A stretch of 10,877 bases of DNA from Candidatus Altarchaeum sp. GTDB taxonomy: Archaea > Altiarchaeota > Altiarchaeia > Altiarchaeales > Altiarchaeaceae. Shown in pieces: positions 1 to 6,347 of this stretch. How positions within the stretch are numbered: the first letter of the stretch is position 1; each line of letters begins with the position of its first letter. The position numbers were made by a program, and so were the translations under genes. The DNA is taken from assembly GCA_018260615.1 (NCBI GenBank), contig JAGWDQ010000038.1:1-10877 (forward strand), read 5' to 3'. The notes beneath the pieces are model-generated. The model was not told the origin of the DNA. It searched no databases and saw only the letters and a program-made list of their open reading frames with translations.

Positions 1-173
1 AGATGATTTAAAGTTGTGATTTTTATTTTCATTTATTTAATATCCAAAATTTAATCATTTATTTACTTTAAATTATAATTATTTATTTTGTTTATTTATT
101 TAAATTTATTAATTTAATAATATCCGAAATTAATTATTAACCAAAATAACAGAAATAAAATTTCATCCAAAAT

Positions 174-292
174 GAGTATATACGCAACAACTGCGGATTT
201 CATGCCAAATCGGAGTTATATACGCAATGCTGATATCATGCCAAATCAGGAGGATATGTGCAATAACTGCGGATATAACATGTTATACGCAA
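174..292. repeat. Three degenerate ~32-39 bp tandem repeats built from attC-like arm fragments, ending in GTTATACGCAA
   Basis: Units 174-212 gagtatatacgcaacaactgcggatttcatgccaaatcg, 213-249 gagttatatacgcaatgctgatatcatgccaaatcag, 250-281 gaggatatgtgcaataactgcggatataacat, then gttatacgcaa 282-292. ATAACTGCGGATA (263-275) matches ATAACAGCGGATA (3094-3106) at 12/13; GTTATACGC (282-290) is identical to 2325-2333. Confidence 0.7.
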
Positions 293-366
293 TTGACTTC
301 GGGACGGATTTAACTTTAGAATCACAAAAAACATTTATTAACTTTAAAAGTTAAATAAATTAAAAA

Positions 367-2055
367 ATGAAAACAAAAAATTCTAAAACAGGAAAAAATA
401 AAAATTTAATTAGTAAGATATTTGTATTTTTGGTGGTGTTATTTATAAGTAATTTGATGATAGGGTCAGTTATTGCCAAAGACGACCCTGGCTGTAAGTT
501 GAGTGCCATAGCAGCTGGATGGTACTGTGCGTACGACGGTAATACATGCAAAAGCAAAGGAAACATATGTGAACTACAAGGAACAAGCACAGTGAATTAT
601 TGGTGTAAATGTGTGAAAAAGAGCAGTACGGGTACGGAAGGTTGTGCAGCAGTATATGTAGATGACAAAACCTGCTATGTGTCTGCCCCACAAGATATTC
701 AATATGTAATCCCAGACACAGATATAATCATCTGGACGACTCATGTTACTCTCCCACTGTGTTTAGGAGGGGGAACTATAGATTCAAATACTTCACAGGT
801 AGAGTTTAACCTTTCCTTTAAAAACAATATTTCTGAAATTGTACCGTTTACAATAACAGGTTATCGTGCCACATGGCAATCTGTGGATATTCAAGGAATA
901 TCCACTGGCGTAAACTATGAGACACTAAACTCTAATTATAATTCTAGTGGATTTTTCAATAGAACAACTGGTCAAATTATTTCATCCTTTTCGACAATTA
1001 TCACAAACGATATATACACCACAGAAAACCCAATGATAGCTCGAGGGTATATAATAGGCACAATTAATTGTACTAATAACATTACGACAATCCAGTATGA
1101 TGGAACACTTGAATTTCCCTATGATGAAACAATTCCATCATCCGACGATTGCGAAAAGAAAATTGAAGAAATTAAACATAAAGAACTATTGACTGTATAC
1201 TACCTTCCACTTCGTGATGCAGTAGATAAAGCATATATCCTAGCAGACTACAACTTCAACGACAACGCTGCGGGTTTCATAGGAACAATTGAAGTTACAA
1301 ACACCAATGATTATCCTGTAACTATAATCATTGACCCGAGCAATCTTGAAGGTTATGTTGTTGTCAGCGAGCAAAATAGAACAATAGATAAGATAACTGG
1401 TCCACTAGTTAATGTAAGTGATAAAGGTATAACTTACAAACCAGCAATCAATGTAACTCTTGGTCCTCATGGTAGTCCAAATGATACCGTAAAACTTGGC
1501 ATTGTAGGTCATTGTATAGGTCCATATGATATAACTCCGGGGTCTGGAAATCTTCCTGTTATCTCCCCAGTTGAGGTTACACCTATTGACCCAAGATTCA
1601 ATACAACAAAAGATATTGTTGAGTTTACCAATAATATCACATATCCTGAAGATTTTACAAATATAGAAAAAGGAGTTGCAGGTTCAATTATACATCTTGC
1701 AATCACAAATCAAAGTGTAACTCCAGAACAATTCCTGTCCATTTACCCAGATGTGAATATAACTGATAAAATTATACCGTTTGTCAATGAGACATTAAAT
1801 GAGAAAGGTATAAGTACAGAAGGTGTGCCATTACTCACAGAAACGGGAGTTAAAAAAGAACCGGCTCCAGTAACAGTGCCAGAAAAACCTACGGAAGAAT
1901 TTCCTTTGATATCTATAATTATTGCTCTATTGGGGGTTGGATTAACTACTTTAGGGCTGATAAAAAAGAACAAAGCACTAATAGTAATTGGAATTGTCCT
2001 TCTTGGCGTATCAGCTATGCAGTACAGTATGAGTCCGATGCCTTTTTACAGGTAG
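367..2055 (+). CDS. Secreted, C-terminally membrane-anchored Cys/Thr/Asn-rich surface (glyco)protein, 562 aa, function unknown
   Basis: Long ORF. Basic N-region plus hydrophobic signal ending in SVIA; Cys at 43, 54, 61, 68, 80, 82, 93, 103, 132; many N-x-S/T sequons (NLS, NSS, NRT, NVS, NVT, NDT, NTT, NIT, NQS, NET); P/T/E linker (EPAPVTVPEKPTEEFP) then two hydrophobic segments separated by KKNK. Confidence 0.8.
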   Translation: MKTKNSKTGKNKNLISKIFVFLVVLFISNLMIGSVIAKDDPGCKLSAIAAGWYCAYDGNTCKSKGNICELQGTSTVNYWCKCVKKSSTGTEGCAAVYVDDKTCYVSAPQDIQYVIPDTDIIIWTTHVTLPLCLGGGTIDSNTSQVEFNLSFKNNISEIVPFTITGYRATWQSVDIQGISTGVNYETLNSNYNSSGFFNRTTGQIISSFSTIITNDIYTTENPMIARGYIIGTINCTNNITTIQYDGTLEFPYDETIPSSDDCEKKIEEIKHKELLTVYYLPLRDAVDKAYILADYNFNDNAAGFIGTIEVTNTNDYPVTIIIDPSNLEGYVVVSEQNRTIDKITGPLVNVSDKGITYKPAINVTLGPHGSPNDTVKLGIVGHCIGPYDITPGSGNLPVISPVEVTPIDPRFNTTKDIVEFTNNITYPEDFTNIEKGVAGSIIHLAITNQSVTPEQFLSIYPDVNITDKIIPFVNETLNEKGISTEGVPLLTETGVKKEPAPVTVPEKPTEEFPLISIIIALLGVGLTTLGLIKKNKALIVIGIVLLGVSAMQYSMSPMPFYR

Positions 2056-2237
2056 ATACCCTGCGGTGAATAGTAGGAAAAAATGAACGGTTGAAAGAAT
2101 CAGAGAAAGCATCAGAAGAATTTTGATTTGTGTTGCTACGGTGGCTGCGAGAATATTGGCTATTGTGGGTATTTACAAGATAATTAAGAAGTAGAAAAAT
2201 TAAGAAAGTGATTATATTTAGTGTCCCTTCGTCAACA

Positions 2238-2333
2238 GCGTATAACAAAGGATATCCGCGGCGGGCTATCGCCCTTGCACTTCGTGAAATTGCCCTATCG
2301 GGCAACTTCGGATACCCTTATTCCGTTATACGC
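2238..2333 (+). repeat. attC-like imperfect palindrome (site 1)
   Basis: GCGTATAAC (2238-2246) and GTTATACGC (2325-2333) form a perfect 9-bp inverted repeat with AAC/GTT cores. Inner arms AAGGATATCCG (2248-2258) and CGGATACCCTT (2309-2319) pair 10/11. Internal hairpins gggc-tatc-gccc and ttgccc-tatc-gggcaa. Core-to-core length 92 bp, within the known attC size range. Confidence 0.7.
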
Positions 2334-2354
2334 CATTTTAGGCAAATAAATATT

Positions 2355-2360
2355 AGGAGG
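2355..2360 (+). promoter_or_regulatory. Shine-Dalgarno AGGAGG of the cassette ORF
   Basis: AGGAGG 8 nt before ATG 2369. The starts at 367, 3824, 6348 and 9374 have A-rich leaders with no comparable SD. Confidence 0.75.
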
Positions 2361-2368
2361 ATAAAAAT

Positions 2369-3046
2369 ATGAATGATATAATATCTATTATTTTAGGGAT
2401 TTTAGCGTTTATTTTAGCGTTTGCAATTATGGTGGGGTTTGTACTGTTACCTTATACCTTAATTGAGTGGCTTATTTTTAAATACAAAAAGGGGGAATAT
2501 TTACGACAACTCTCAATAGTAATAAACAGCCAAATAGATGCCTCTTTCTGGATGATCTTTCGGAATTCGAGCGCAAGTTTAAAAGGGGAATGGGATGGTA
2601 AAAAAATTGAAGTTAAATTATACTATCGTCTTAGATTCATGCGTTACGAATCCCCACAAATTGAAATTTGCCTTTACCATATTTTTCCCTGTCAGGTGTC
2701 AATATGTCGCAAGGATTTTCCTCCTGACTTTTTAATGACCGAGTTTTACTTCCGTGAAGAAAAAATAAGTACCGGTGATTTGCAATTTGACAAGAATTAT
2801 GAAATTTTATCCGATAGTGAACTAAATGCTAAAACCTTCTTAACTTTAAAACGCAGGGAGATCATACAACGCCTTTTTACTCAAAAAAACATTAAAAGTG
2901 TAAGTATATACGCGAGTTATGTAAAAATAACTTTTAAATCTTTTTCCGGATCCAAAAAATTTGAAAATATTTTGTCTTCAACAGAATTTCCCGAAGTCCT
3001 AATAGATATTAAGAGATTGACTGATGAATTGGAGGATAGTAAGTAA
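2369..3046 (+). CDS. Hypothetical membrane protein, 225 aa: N-terminal TM helix plus a soluble domain resembling DUF3137-like proteins
   Basis: SD plus ATG; hydrophobic stretch IISIILGILAFILAFAIMVGFVLLPY. The segment TGDLQFDKNYEILSDSELNAKTFLT resembles the D-x-x-F-(D/E)-x-x-(F/Y)...A-x-x-x-L-T pattern I recall from DUF3137-like proteins; that family assignment is tentative. Confidence 0.7.
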   Translation: MNDIISIILGILAFILAFAIMVGFVLLPYTLIEWLIFKYKKGEYLRQLSIVINSQIDASFWMIFRNSSASLKGEWDGKKIEVKLYYRLRFMRYESPQIEICLYHIFPCQVSICRKDFPPDFLMTEFYFREEKISTGDLQFDKNYEILSDSELNAKTFLTLKRREIIQRLFTQKNIKSVSIYASYVKITFKSFSGSKKFENILSSTEFPEVLIDIKRLTDELEDSK

Positions 3047-3091
3047 TTTTTGCGAGAGAGATATTTTATCAAATATATGCCCCAAAACAGT

Positions 3092-3171
3092 GCATAACAG
3101 CGGATAAAAGAGAAATCATGGATTTCCCAAAATTGCCTTCAGCAACTTCTTTTATCCGCAAACCGTTATCT
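3092..3171 (+). repeat. attC-like imperfect palindrome (site 2)
   Basis: GCATAAC (3092-3098) and GTTATCT (3165-3171) cores. Perfect 12-bp inner arms GCGGATAAAAGA (3100-3111) and TCTTTTATCCGC (3148-3159). Internal hairpins gaaatc-atg-gatttc and ttgc-cttca-gcaa. Length 80 bp. Confidence 0.7.
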
Positions 3172-3401
3172 GAAATACCAAACCCCACATTTGAAAAGAA
3201 AATCTAATAAAGAGATTATTATAAATATATTCTAAATACCTGATTTTCAATCTTATCAATGTTTCATCAAATCCCAAATTAATGAAAATTTCATTGTTTT
3301 TTCTTTTTTCTACAAAAGTACAGAAAGTATGTATTGAATGTGGTTTGCATTGCATAGTAAATCTTAAAATTTTTACAAAATAAGAGCGAAAATGTTTTCT
3401 G

Positions 3402-3452: not shown

Positions 3453-3751
3453 ATGAAAATTTCGTTTGAAATAAAAGACAAGGACATCACCTCACTTACG
3501 TTCACTTCGTTCGTGTATTTACAAAATGCTTTGCATTTTGTAAGATTGAAAATCTTGTAGATTTTCAGTATTTCAAATCTCTGCGATTTAAAAAATCTCG
3601 CAGATTTTTTAAAGATTGAAACCGAAGGTTTCAGTATTTTGAAAATCGTTCGGAGATTTCAGAAACAAGTTCTGAAATTGCGGGAAGGATTGGAAATCCG
3701 GAGATAAAGAATGAGAATAACAACATAAGCAAAACCATAGAAACACCCGCA
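3453..3751 (+). pseudogene. tgtA: Truncated, interrupted copy of the first 36 codons of tgtA
   Basis: 3453-3487 reads MKISFEIKDKD(I) and 3680-3751 reads AGRIGNPEIKNENNNISKTIETPA, versus MKISFEIKDKDIAGRIGKLEIENENNSMKKTIETPA at 9374. Split by a 191-bp insertion that gives a TAG at 3558-3560. Homology stops after codon 36. Confidence 0.9.
3488..3678. repeat. 191-bp composite palindromic (REP/BIME- or MITE-like) insertion made of short hairpins
   Basis: Hairpins: ttacaaaatgc-ttt-gcattttgtaa (3519-3543), tgaaaatct-tgt-agattttca (3547-3567), tttaaaaaatct-cgc-agattttttaaa (3587-3613), tgaaacc-gaa-ggtttca (3617-3633), atttcagaa-acaag-ttctgaaat (3656-3678). Removing it rejoins the tgtA-like sequence gacat|tgcg. 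Boundaries are ambiguous by a few bp. Confidence 0.85.
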
Positions 3752-3779: not shown

Positions 3780-3816
3780 TCTAAATTTATTATACTTAAA
3801 TTTATTATACTTAAAT
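3780..3816 (+). promoter_or_regulatory. Probable promoter of mod: 15-bp tandem duplication TAAATTTATTATACT
   Basis: TAAATTTATTATACT at 3782-3796 and 3797-3811, plus a partial TAAAT. Each copy contains a TTTATTAT(A) TATA-like box, just upstream of ATG 3824. Confidence 0.45.
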
Positions 3817-3823
3817 CAGTAAA

Positions 3824-6337
3824 ATGAATCAAAAAGAAAAAGAGTTTTTTAAAATACTGGAAAATATTTTTATAGGAGCAAAAATAGAGGGAAATTCTGC
3901 ATCCGGATTTATAAATTTAATGAAAATAAAATCATCTTATTTTGAATGGCTTTTTGAGGATTTAACTAATGAAATTAACGAAAAAACAAAGAACTTTCCG
4001 GAGTTTAAAGAGGAAATGTTTGATAAGCTTTACAGTTTCTTTAAAACATATTTTTCCGAATCTGGAAGCATATATTTTAGTTATACTCCGTTAAAATCAA
4101 ATGTTTATGAGAGGGTCTATACAAATCAAAAAGATGTTGCTTTATTTTGGAAAACCCACATGCTTTATTATGTTAAAACAGACAAATTGTGGAAAGACAT
4201 GACTATTGATTTTGATAATAACGGAATTTCTTATAAAATTCATTTTGATGTTTCCAAATTGGAATATAAAAAAGCCAATGAAAAAAAGAATACAATTTAT
4301 GAGTTAATGACTATAGATAATAAGGAAATTACATTCGGTGTTTTATATTCTGAAAGAGGTAAAGTAACCAAAATAGACGAAATATTAAAGGAATTTAAGA
4401 GGAAAAAAATATTTCCTGATGAGGAAAATCTTAATAAAATTTTTAGAATTTTTGAGAAACAAAACGAAGTGGACTATTTCATTAACAAAAATGCAGAGCA
4501 GTTTTTAAAAGAGCATTTTAATTTATGGCTGAAAAGCTATTTGTTAGATGATGAATCGGATTATTCGGAAAAGCGACTGAAGCAGTTAAAGGTCCTGAAA
4601 GAAATTGCTTATACAATTATTGATTTTGTTGCACAGTTTGAGGATGAACTTGTGAAAATCTGGAACAAACCAAAATTTGTTAAAAACAGTAATTATGTAA
4701 TTACATTAGACAGGATAAAAGACGAAAATCTGACTGAAAAAATTTTAAATCACAAAAACATTGAAGAACAGATCAAAGAATGGAAGGAATTAAACATAAT
4801 TGAGAATGATTTTGATAAAAGCAAAATTTTAGAGAATAATTTAACAGGAAAACATTTATCTAAAAAATATGAGCATTTGCCGATTGACACAAAATATTTC
4901 AAGGATTTGGAACTTGAAATTTTAGGATTATTTGATGACCTTGATAATTCTTTGGACGGCTGGCTGATAAAGAGCGAAAACTATCAGGCATTAAATACAA
5001 TCCTGCCAAAGTTCAAAGAGAGAGTGCAGACAATTTATATTGACCCGCCATTTAATTTGGATTCTTCCGACCAGTTTTTATACCGCACAAACTACAAAGA
5101 CGCTAACTGGGCGACTTTGCTTGAAAATAGATTAAAGTTAGCAAAAGATATTTTGGATAAAAAAGGAAGCATTTTTGTCAGATGCGATTATAACGGGAAT
5201 TGGATTGTGAGATGTTTGATGGATAGCGAGTTTGGGAAAGAAAATTTTAGGAATGAGATTGTTGTAAGAAGATTTAGAAAAAATGTGATGGAGAAAGAGA
5301 TAAAGAAATTACCCGAAGGTATAGACACTATTTTCATCTACTCATTAACTGATAAGTTTAAATATCTTCATCCTTACAAAGCAAAAGCACAAAGAAGAGA
5401 GGGATTTTGGAGACACATGGGAGATTCAAGCGGACAGGGCACTTCCAAGATATTCTTTGGCAAGGAATTATCTCCGCCTAAGGGCAAACATTGGAAATAT
5501 TCGCAAGAAAAAATAAATCAGATGATTGAAGAAGGAACTCTAATCCTTGTGTGTAGTAATTGTGGTTATCAACACGATAAAACAAAAGAGGATTGGAGAG
5601 GATGCCCTAATTGTAAAGAAGATAAATTTATTCCTAAATATTGGGTGGATGCAGGGGAAGAAGAGGTTTTAGATTCTAACTGGACTGATTTGTATGGTTA
5701 TTCTACGGGTTGGCAATTTCAAACCGAAAACTCCGAAATTCTCCTAAATCGTGTGATGAAATCCACTTCCAACGAAGGCGATCTTGTTATGGACTTCTTT
5801 CTCGGCTCTGGCACAACAACCGCAGTAGCACATAAACTTGGCAGAAAATGGATTGGAGTTGAGATGGGAGAACATTTTTATAGTGTGGTTTTGCCAAGAA
5901 TGAAAAAGGTCCTGGCTTATGATAAATCCGGAATTTCAAAGGAAATCAAAGAATATCAGGGCGGCGGATTTTTCAAGTATTTTGAACTGGAACAATACGA
6001 GGATACTTTAAGGAGAGTAATTTATAAAGAAAGTCATCCATTTATGAATTTTTCTGACAAAACAACAATTTATCAGCAATATGTTTTCTTAAATGATTTA
6101 AAAATGTTAGATGCAATAGAGTTGGACCACAAAAATAATAAGATTAAGATTGATTTTTCAAAAATTTATCCGGACATTGATCTGGCAGAAACGATTTCAT
6201 TAGTAAGCGGGAAGAAAATAAAGAAAATAGAGAAAGATGGAGTTATTATTGAAAAAGATGAAAACACAACCGGGAAGATAAATTTTGATAATATTCCTTT
6301 CAGTTTAATCAGGCCGTTAATCTGGTGGACAAAGTAA
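3824..6337 (+). CDS. mod: Type III restriction-modification methyltransferase (Mod), beta-class amino-MTase, 837 aa with a long N-terminal extension
   Basis: Catalytic motif IV IYIDPPF (DPPF 5042-5053) precedes SAM-binding motif I DFFLGSGTT (from 5792), the beta order, with a target-recognition region between them. Directly upstream of a Res-type helicase/nuclease. Confidence 0.92.
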   Translation: MNQKEKEFFKILENIFIGAKIEGNSASGFINLMKIKSSYFEWLFEDLTNEINEKTKNFPEFKEEMFDKLYSFFKTYFSESGSIYFSYTPLKSNVYERVYTNQKDVALFWKTHMLYYVKTDKLWKDMTIDFDNNGISYKIHFDVSKLEYKKANEKKNTIYELMTIDNKEITFGVLYSERGKVTKIDEILKEFKRKKIFPDEENLNKIFRIFEKQNEVDYFINKNAEQFLKEHFNLWLKSYLLDDESDYSEKRLKQLKVLKEIAYTIIDFVAQFEDELVKIWNKPKFVKNSNYVITLDRIKDENLTEKILNHKNIEEQIKEWKELNIIENDFDKSKILENNLTGKHLSKKYEHLPIDTKYFKDLELEILGLFDDLDNSLDGWLIKSENYQALNTILPKFKERVQTIYIDPPFNLDSSDQFLYRTNYKDANWATLLENRLKLAKDILDKKGSIFVRCDYNGNWIVRCLMDSEFGKENFRNEIVVRRFRKNVMEKEIKKLPEGIDTIFIYSLTDKFKYLHPYKAKAQRREGFWRHMGDSSGQGTSKIFFGKELSPPKGKHWKYSQEKINQMIEEGTLILVCSNCGYQHDKTKEDWRGCPNCKEDKFIPKYWVDAGEEEVLDSNWTDLYGYSTGWQFQTENSEILLNRVMKSTSNEGDLVMDFFLGSGTTTAVAHKLGRKWIGVEMGEHFYSVVLPRMKKVLAYDKSGISKEIKEYQGGGFFKYFELEQYEDTLRRVIYKESHPFMNFSDKTTIYQQYVFLNDLKMLDAIELDHKNNKIKIDFSKIYPDIDLAETISLVSGKKIKKIEKDGVIIEKDENTTGKINFDNIPFSLIRPLIWWTK

Positions 6338-6347
6338 AAACATCAAA

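Follow-up and report, generated by a model that had tools for sequence, protein, structure and literature searches.

The window, by which we mean the whole stretch of DNA analysed here, is the complete contig C38 (10,877 nt) of a 2.23-Mb archaeal MAG with a completeness of 87%. The host is a groundwater archaeon, Candidatus Altarchaeum, and the archaeosine TGT encoded in the window shares 83-88% identity with the TGTs of Candidatus Altarchaeum and Altiarchaeales MAGs. In order, the window holds the end of a recombinase gene, an attI-like site, two putative gene cassettes, a type III restriction-modification system and the archaeosine TGT. The same succession is present on an independent 12.7-kb JGI contig (L065), where the recombinase gene, the attI-like site, cassettes 1 and 2, Mod, Res and TGT follow one another unbroken; the part of this contig corresponding to the window is 99.98% identical to it, and its recombinase part is 96.8% identical. 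The locus is present in the samples JGI 3300029890, SRR3546456, ERZ27239246 and ERZ27239245. The features on which the following discussion is based are:

1-19, plus strand: 3′ end of the recombinase gene (last codons and stop TGA at 17-19); window positions 1-55 are identical to positions 110-56 of contig C79
20-154, plus strand: AT-rich spacer from the recombinase gene to the attI-like site, with a repeated motif at 20-58 and 83-121
about 155-293, plus strand: attI-like site, with at least nine genome copies kept up to ATAAC-nn-GTTA
283-2325, plus strand: putative cassette 1, comprising a 562-aa ORF (367-2055) and its own attC-like site, as suggested by the complementarity of its left box to the attI junction
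2238-2333, plus strand: attC-like site 1, with R″ at 2238-2246, L″ at about 2248-2258, L′ at about 2309-2319, the bulge ATTCC at 2320-2324 and R′ at 2325-2333
2326-3165, plus strand: putative cassette 2, comprising a 5′ UTR, a 225-aa ORF (2369-3046), a 3′ UTR and its own attC-like site, as delimited by comparison with contig L069
3090-3173, plus strand: attC-like site 2, with R″ at 3090-3098, the bulge AAACC at 3160-3164 and R′ at 3165-3173
3166-3210, plus strand: distal junction TTATCTGAAATACCAAAC..., a generic "cassette start" motif found after many sites

Past the distal junction, a further attC-like site is absent in the window. The type III pair (Mod of 837 aa with N6_N4_Mtase, Res of 1007 aa with a ResIII/SNF2 helicase) occupies positions 3824-9371 between the cassette array and the archaeosine TGT, is without a bounding attC-like site, and at its start the GC content drops to 0.25-0.29. 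Just ahead of the mod start codon lie overlapping AT-rich inverted repeats (AAAATCT..AGATTTT units, 3537-3647) and a perfect 15-nt tandem duplication (two copies of TAAATTTATTATACT, 3782-3815), and these repeats may be regulatory or phase-variable. A minus-strand ORF of 96 aa (2015-2305) that overlaps site 1 is probably not a gene.

The remainder of the recombinase gene is located on contig C79 (92-1120, minus strand) and its 342-aa product is the only tyrosine recombinase found in the assembly. At about position 55 of the window, 36 nt past the recombinase stop codon, the assembly forks (contigs C79, C49 and C20), one branch being the window and the other a multi-copy IS630-like element (terminal TATACTGCCCAACC..., with a transposase ORF on C49). 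Rather than alternative cassettes, an interpretation that was rejected, the fork reflects a polymorphic insertion of the IS630-like type, located after the recombinase gene and before the attI-like site. The motif repeated within the spacer is found ahead of other attI-like copies too. An earlier note on this DNA had described the locus as CALIN-like, with no integrase in view, a description which is overturned by the recombinase gene end at 1-19, the attI-like site at about 155-293 and the linkage on L065. The window is a complete platform and not an orphan cluster, and represents the recombinase-linked platform copy in the Altarchaeum genome.

In regard to the second cassette, the same note had proposed that two imperfect palindromes of the AAC...GTT type bracket the co-oriented 225-aa ORF, and both their positions and their folding agree with this. 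Site 1 has the left box GCGTATAAC and the right box GTTATACGC (2325-2333), site 2 the left box GTGCATAAC and the right box GTTATCTGA (3165-3173), with left boxes of the form ..ATAAC and right boxes of the form GTTAT.. in both. Folded as single-stranded DNA, the two sites reach z values of -4.4 to -5.8 against shuffled sequences, with none of 200 shuffles equal to them. The 225-aa ORF is also, as had been stated, the only one of the five long ORFs with a strong AGGAGG (2355-2360) ahead of its ATG, none being present before the other four.

A single close relative of the 225-aa protein, with 63% identity, was found among 5.8 billion proteins, encoded on an ENA contig (L069) between two sites of the same family; the best homologue is not one devoid of flanking palindromes, a circumstance which the earlier note had named as contrary to a cassette. 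The homologue has a different upstream neighbour gene (334 aa) and a different upstream site. Compared with the window, the upstream sites are unalike, identity starts at ..CCGTTATACGCC and runs through the 5′ UTR, and the homology spans the ORF, the 3′ UTR and the site belonging to it, breaking right after CCGTTAT. Marking the border with a slash, the similarity starts at ..CC/GTTATACGCC and stops at CCGTTAT/. Since it starts and stops at the two GTTAT boxes, the borders of the cassette are placed between 2325 and 2326 and between 3165 and 3166, in exact accordance with the borders proposed before, the crossover position being resolved only to within GTTA. A circle in which 3165 is joined to 2326 is predicted to read ...AAACCG/TTATACGCC... 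at its junction. From this comparison, the 225-aa gene is a genuine mobile cassette that belongs to an integron-like array.

Cassette 2 and its homologue on L069 agree at about 97-100% in their untranslated ends (2326-2368 and 3047-3098), against no more than 63% identity at the protein level. This difference points either to rapid evolution of the central part of the gene or to homogenisation of the cassette ends. In the hydrophobic N-terminus of the ORF, a perfect 12-nt tandem duplication (two copies of ATTTTAGCGTTT, 2399-2422) repeats four residues, and the homologue is 9 nt shorter in this region. The structural model of the protein (pLDDT 82) has a long N-terminal hydrophobic helix followed by an alpha/beta domain, and membrane anchoring is predicted. 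The protein matches DUF3137 below threshold, and a fold search with the model gave weak matches (TM 0.4-0.5) to membrane-anchored proteins of translocon complexes (7tm3, 6w6l) and to mycobacterial TtfA. A search of 1.84 billion representatives gave only nine relatives; the closer of these are themselves cassettes located behind sites of the same family, and those on bacterial-looking contigs are only about 30% identical and without sites. On these grounds, a bacterial origin of the gene, previously suggested as possible, is not supported.

A search for further copies of the site, advised in the earlier note and carried out by BLAST, by nhmmer in iterated rounds and with a covariance model derived from 21 copies, revealed at least 24 (24-26) of them on 12 contigs of the genome; as members of such a family, sites 1 and 2 are not due to chance. 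The 23 full sites range from 58 to 107 nt. Their parts are an R box (..TAAC / GTTA..), a covarying L stem of 11 bp, a tip that is variable, and a 4-5-nt bulge that is conserved. TAAC is invariant and GTTA near-invariant (20 of 21 aligned sites), and an AACTTC motif and the TCC ahead of GTTA are near-invariant as well. The L stem is 90% paired and shows compensatory changes in 8 of its 11 pairs, with slid and shuffled controls all failing. The bulge, ATTCC on the gene strand, is positioned beside the crossover, and in predicted folds of the bottom strand its 4-5 nt are contiguous and separate the R stem from the L stem, the latter being otherwise continuous. In 19 of the 23 sites this strand, which is antisense to the genes, gives the more stable fold (Wilcoxon p=4e-4). 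A stretch of about 25 nt just 5′ of the left box (TTAGTGTCCCTTCGTCAAC) is common to three otherwise unlike cassettes (window 2208-2237, C36:2340-2370 and C105:20867-20895), so the conserved module may reach past the palindrome. All 22 judgeable sites are found just 3′ of a co-oriented ORF, and the occurrence of palindromes outside a cassette-like gene context, which had been named as a counter-argument, was not observed among them.

For cassettes of the integron type, complementarity of a site's left box is expected with the right box of the preceding junction and not with its own. For site 2, the claim that its left box pairs better with the right box of site 1 (6/7) than with its own (5/7) is correct, and extension to nine bases gives 7/9 against 5/9. 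Across 16 consecutive junctions in the genome, left boxes complemented the preceding junction at 78 of 96 variable positions (7 perfect), compared to 48 of 96 (1 perfect) for their own right boxes. Shuffled pairings gave 53.5 +/- 4.3, and 0 of 100,000 reached 78 (p<1e-5). This rule, together with the L069 homologue, supports the original proposal of a cassette moved by site-specific recombination.

The position of the sites would also be in line with RNA elements of 3′ UTRs or transcription terminators serving many genes, as every judgeable site follows a co-oriented ORF. Such elements, however, leave unexplained both the pairing of left boxes with the previous right box and the exact break of homology at GTTAT between related cassettes, and it is the antisense strand that folds better; moreover, an Rfam scan of the window with E up to 10 gave no match at the sites, and no T-run was found after them. 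We regard this explanation as highly improbable. Equally improbable is a MITE family with terminal inverted repeats. The ends of the sites are indeed inverted repeats, and Ca. Altiarchaeum hamiconexum reportedly exceeds all other archaea in MITE-like elements (PMC11602168), a richness that would favour this possibility. On the other hand, the orientation relative to the upstream gene is fixed and not random in 22 of 22 judgeable sites, the terminal boxes of one copy often mismatch each other and match those of the neighbouring copy, and the internal stem covaries instead of being conserved by descent. Integron-like cassette sites remain the preferred interpretation of the palindromes.

The attI-like site consists of three direct repeats of 36-38 nt each (about 174-274), which end in ..GCGGATATAAC-AT-GTTA. 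At the end of the third repeat stands a dif-like core, ACTGCGGATAT-AACATG-TTATACGCAAT (266-293), in which G282 and T283 flank the crossover; the two 11-bp arms and the 6-bp spacer of this core correspond to the Xer/dif layout as defined in PMC2958812. A 60-aa ORF (172-354), predicted as a gene on L065, represents a translation of the direct repeats and is probably not a gene. Among the copies of the attI-like site, at least nine in the genome, conservation extends as far as ATAAC-nn-GTTA and is lost immediately behind it, and the sequences following their GTTA are those that follow attC-like sites elsewhere. In five cases (C38, C142, C68, C70 and C81) the attI junction is complementary to the next downstream left box at 9/9 positions, in the window between the junction GTTATACGC and the left box GCGTATAAC of site 1. 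Because of the divergence at GTTA and the 9/9 complementarity, the element seems to behave as an attI, and the orphan 562-aa ORF, whose product has only one partial relative among 5.8 billion proteins, is accordingly considered to be cassette 1 (283-2325). The attI-like site lies about 140 nt past the recombinase stop, and the first cassette is joined at its GTTA, as it is in G003, G029 and a Nitrospirae contig as well. Many attC-like sites and attI-like copies are distant from any recombinase gene. As sequence comparison shows, cassettes are excised and inserted by recombination at G/TT, between sites as well as between sites and the attI-like core. The segment 2326-3165 is probably the second of two cassettes in a chromosomal integron-like capture platform, on which the adjacent Xer-type enzyme would act.

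The recombinase itself passes the NCBIfam XerA equivalog model (NF040815; 237.9 bits, cut-off 220) and fails the IntI model TIGR02249 (207 bits, cut-off 265), of which positions 181-234 are skipped. Among solved structures, VchIntIA (2a3v) and Pyrococcus abyssi XerA score equally, with 137 bits each; compared to VchIntIA, however, the recombinase has 36 residues where IntI has 78, while P. abyssi XerA is aligned end to end. In terms of its sequence, the enzyme is of Xer type (XerA-like), without the IntI-specific insert, and the element is for this reason not a canonical integron. At the N-terminus, members of the family share a conserved extension of about 70 aa, and in the AlphaFold model (mean pLDDT 62) only the N-terminal 65 residues are confident, forming a small beta-rich domain; this domain might serve, we conjecture, in binding the attI-like direct repeats. 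Recombinases of this family are very numerous, with 7,967 of 8,000 scored candidates at E<=1e-20, and members annotated as archaeal or bacterial are 55-65% identical to the Altarchaeum recombinase. From the linkage, we infer that the adjacent Xer-type recombinase is the enzyme acting on the sites. The adjacency of recombinase and array could also result from hitch-hiking, or the recombinase gene could itself be cargo, and given the XerA equivalog call the enzyme may be a housekeeping dimer resolvase.

The platform is not restricted to a single genome. The site model matches 22 of the 41 genomes of the class. In the same genus, contig C2 of G003 combines a recombinase gene with a region of attI-like repeats and with seven sites, all facing the same way, an arrangement similar to that on contig C3 of G030. 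In G029, G033 and G036, the gene for a shorter form of the recombinase adjoins sites and is oriented divergently to them. Many recombinase genes are located within a few hundred bases of contig ends. In an array of G029, a pair of an AbrB/SpoVT-like antitoxin and a PIN-like toxin is present as a cassette (L060, 7500-7950, minus strand); toxin-antitoxin cassettes are common in integrons. Among bacteria, a recombinase with 59% identity is encoded on a Nitrospirae contig, together with an attI-like region that contains repeats, a single CsgG-like cassette and a model-matching site; the attI junction and the left box of this site are complementary at 9/9 positions. On a WOR-3 contig two model-matching sites follow the recombinase gene. 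The recombinases of these two contigs are 55-59% identical to that of Altarchaeum. In both (L075 and L076), purE (AIRC) lies beside the recombinase-linked array, and its neighbourhood may be a preferred chromosomal location.

Two further explanations concern the enzyme. The cassettes could be ordinary integron cassettes (CALIN) served in trans by a canonical IntI, either unassembled or belonging to another organism, with the neighbouring gene being a housekeeping XerA. MAGs are fragmented and the sites have the box layout of attC; furthermore, as the genome is 87% complete, an unassembled IntI or a second Xer is possible. The archaeal integrons described to date are mostly CALINs without IntI (PMC9668308), which points in the same direction. 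However, an IntI above the cut-off was found neither in the genome nor in any of the 41 genomes of the class, including a genome assembled as a single scaffold of 1.39 Mb with 13 sites, in several archaeal genera and two bacterial phyla it is the Xer-type gene that is found beside an attI-like site and cassettes, and the sites carry a 4-5-nt bulge instead of the canonical single extrahelical bases. We consider this explanation unlikely. Alternatively, the cassettes could form a site-specific system of another enzyme, the linkage to the recombinase being coincidental or secondary. The many attI-like and attC-like copies distant from the recombinase gene would fit this, but only one tyrosine recombinase was found in the genome, the arms of 11 bp and the spacer of 6 bp in the attI core are those of Xer/dif (PMC2958812), and the linkage between recombinase and sites recurs across domains, making this explanation quite unlikely, too. 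The Xer-type recombinase next to the array is the enzyme we prefer.

The platform shares with canonical integrons a recombinase gene with an attI-like insertion point, single-gene co-oriented cassettes ending in a folded imperfect palindrome with AAC...GTT boxes and a G/TT crossover, and left boxes complementary to the box at the 5′ end of their own cassette. The cargo, orphan genes and, in relatives of the Altarchaeum array, toxin-antitoxin cassettes, is alike as well. The sites have the attC layout (R″-L″...L′-R′, AAC/GTT, a variable centre and 57-141 nt) together with the G/TT border and the left-box pairing, and an attI-like site with a presumed role in insertion stands beside the recombinase gene, as attI does beside the integrase gene. 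In contrast to canonical integrons, the Altarchaeum recombinase is without the IntI-specific additional domain, its gene is, in the genus, co-oriented with the array and not divergent from it, the attI-like site exists in at least nine dispersed copies, and the L box has the 4-5-nt bulge where attC has single extrahelical bases. A CALIN, defined as at least two attC sites less than 4 kb apart with no integrase nearby, does not describe the window; as IntegronFinder criteria require IntI, the array might still be labelled as one. Archaeal integrons and CALINs have been published by Ghaly et al. 2022 (PMC9668308), with IntIs that carry the additional domain, and as far as Data S1 of that paper is concerned, no Altiarchaeota are among its 75 genomes. 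Our literature search found no description of cassette arrays linked to Xer-type recombinases.

Likeness to Xer/dif, as known for archaeal XerA (PMC2958812, PMC3646895), is seen in the score against the XerA model, the end-to-end alignment to P. abyssi XerA and the 11-bp arms around a 6-bp spacer in the attI core. The platform differs in the N-terminal extension of about 70 aa, in the 55-65% identity of the recombinase family across archaea and bacteria, in having many sites, mostly hairpins, and in that the recombinase adjoins its own sites, unlike archaeal dif, which is not beside xerA (PMC2958812). Gene modules between Xer-type sites are also known as the pdif (Xer) modules of Acinetobacter (PMC7399989), which are alike in this respect; the Altarchaeum sites differ in being directly oriented hairpins with an attI-like partner. 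Within the Altarchaeum genome, the cassettes are chromosomal and stand in arrays. The pdif sites are double-stranded and located on plasmids. The CTX phage is a mobile element that exploits Xer via folded single-stranded DNA. Likewise, an Xer-type enzyme would here meet a dif-like site formed by a folded single strand, although the unit in Altarchaeum is not a phage genome but a chromosomal gene cassette, placed in an array that has an insertion site of its own.

In regard to the mechanism, each cassette starts with TTA... and ends in a hairpin-forming site, whose folded bottom strand could mimic a dif-like site of 11+6+11, with the bulge as a strand marker. The R stem and the L stem of this strand would rebuild a duplex similar to the attI core: on the unbulged strand, GGATA and GTTAT would stand six bases apart, as in the attI-like core, while the other strand would carry the extra 4-5-nt bulge beside the cut. 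The Xer-type enzyme could then swap one strand between the folded site and the attI or another site, and replication would resolve the product, as in integrons.

On balance, we lean somewhat towards the view that the window holds the recombinase-linked master platform of an undescribed archaeal and bacterial gene-capture family, characterized by an Xer-type recombinase without the IntI domain, a dif-like attI and bulged hairpins. As the same recombinase and site family is present in Altiarchaeales, Nitrospirae and WOR-3, it is a candidate route for gene exchange between domains. If this view is true, many "CALINs" would not be orphans, and integrase-less attC clusters in archaea and uncultivated bacteria would be explained. 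An array directly behind an Xer-type recombinase without the integron-defining domain is also relevant to the question of integron origins. The current view is that integron integrases require the extra domain to use folded single-stranded sites, and a widespread cassette system with a plain Xer-type recombinase as its only linked enzyme would challenge this view. The family could, if so, stand between Xer/dif recombination and integrons, and would offer a testable intermediate for the origin of integrons.
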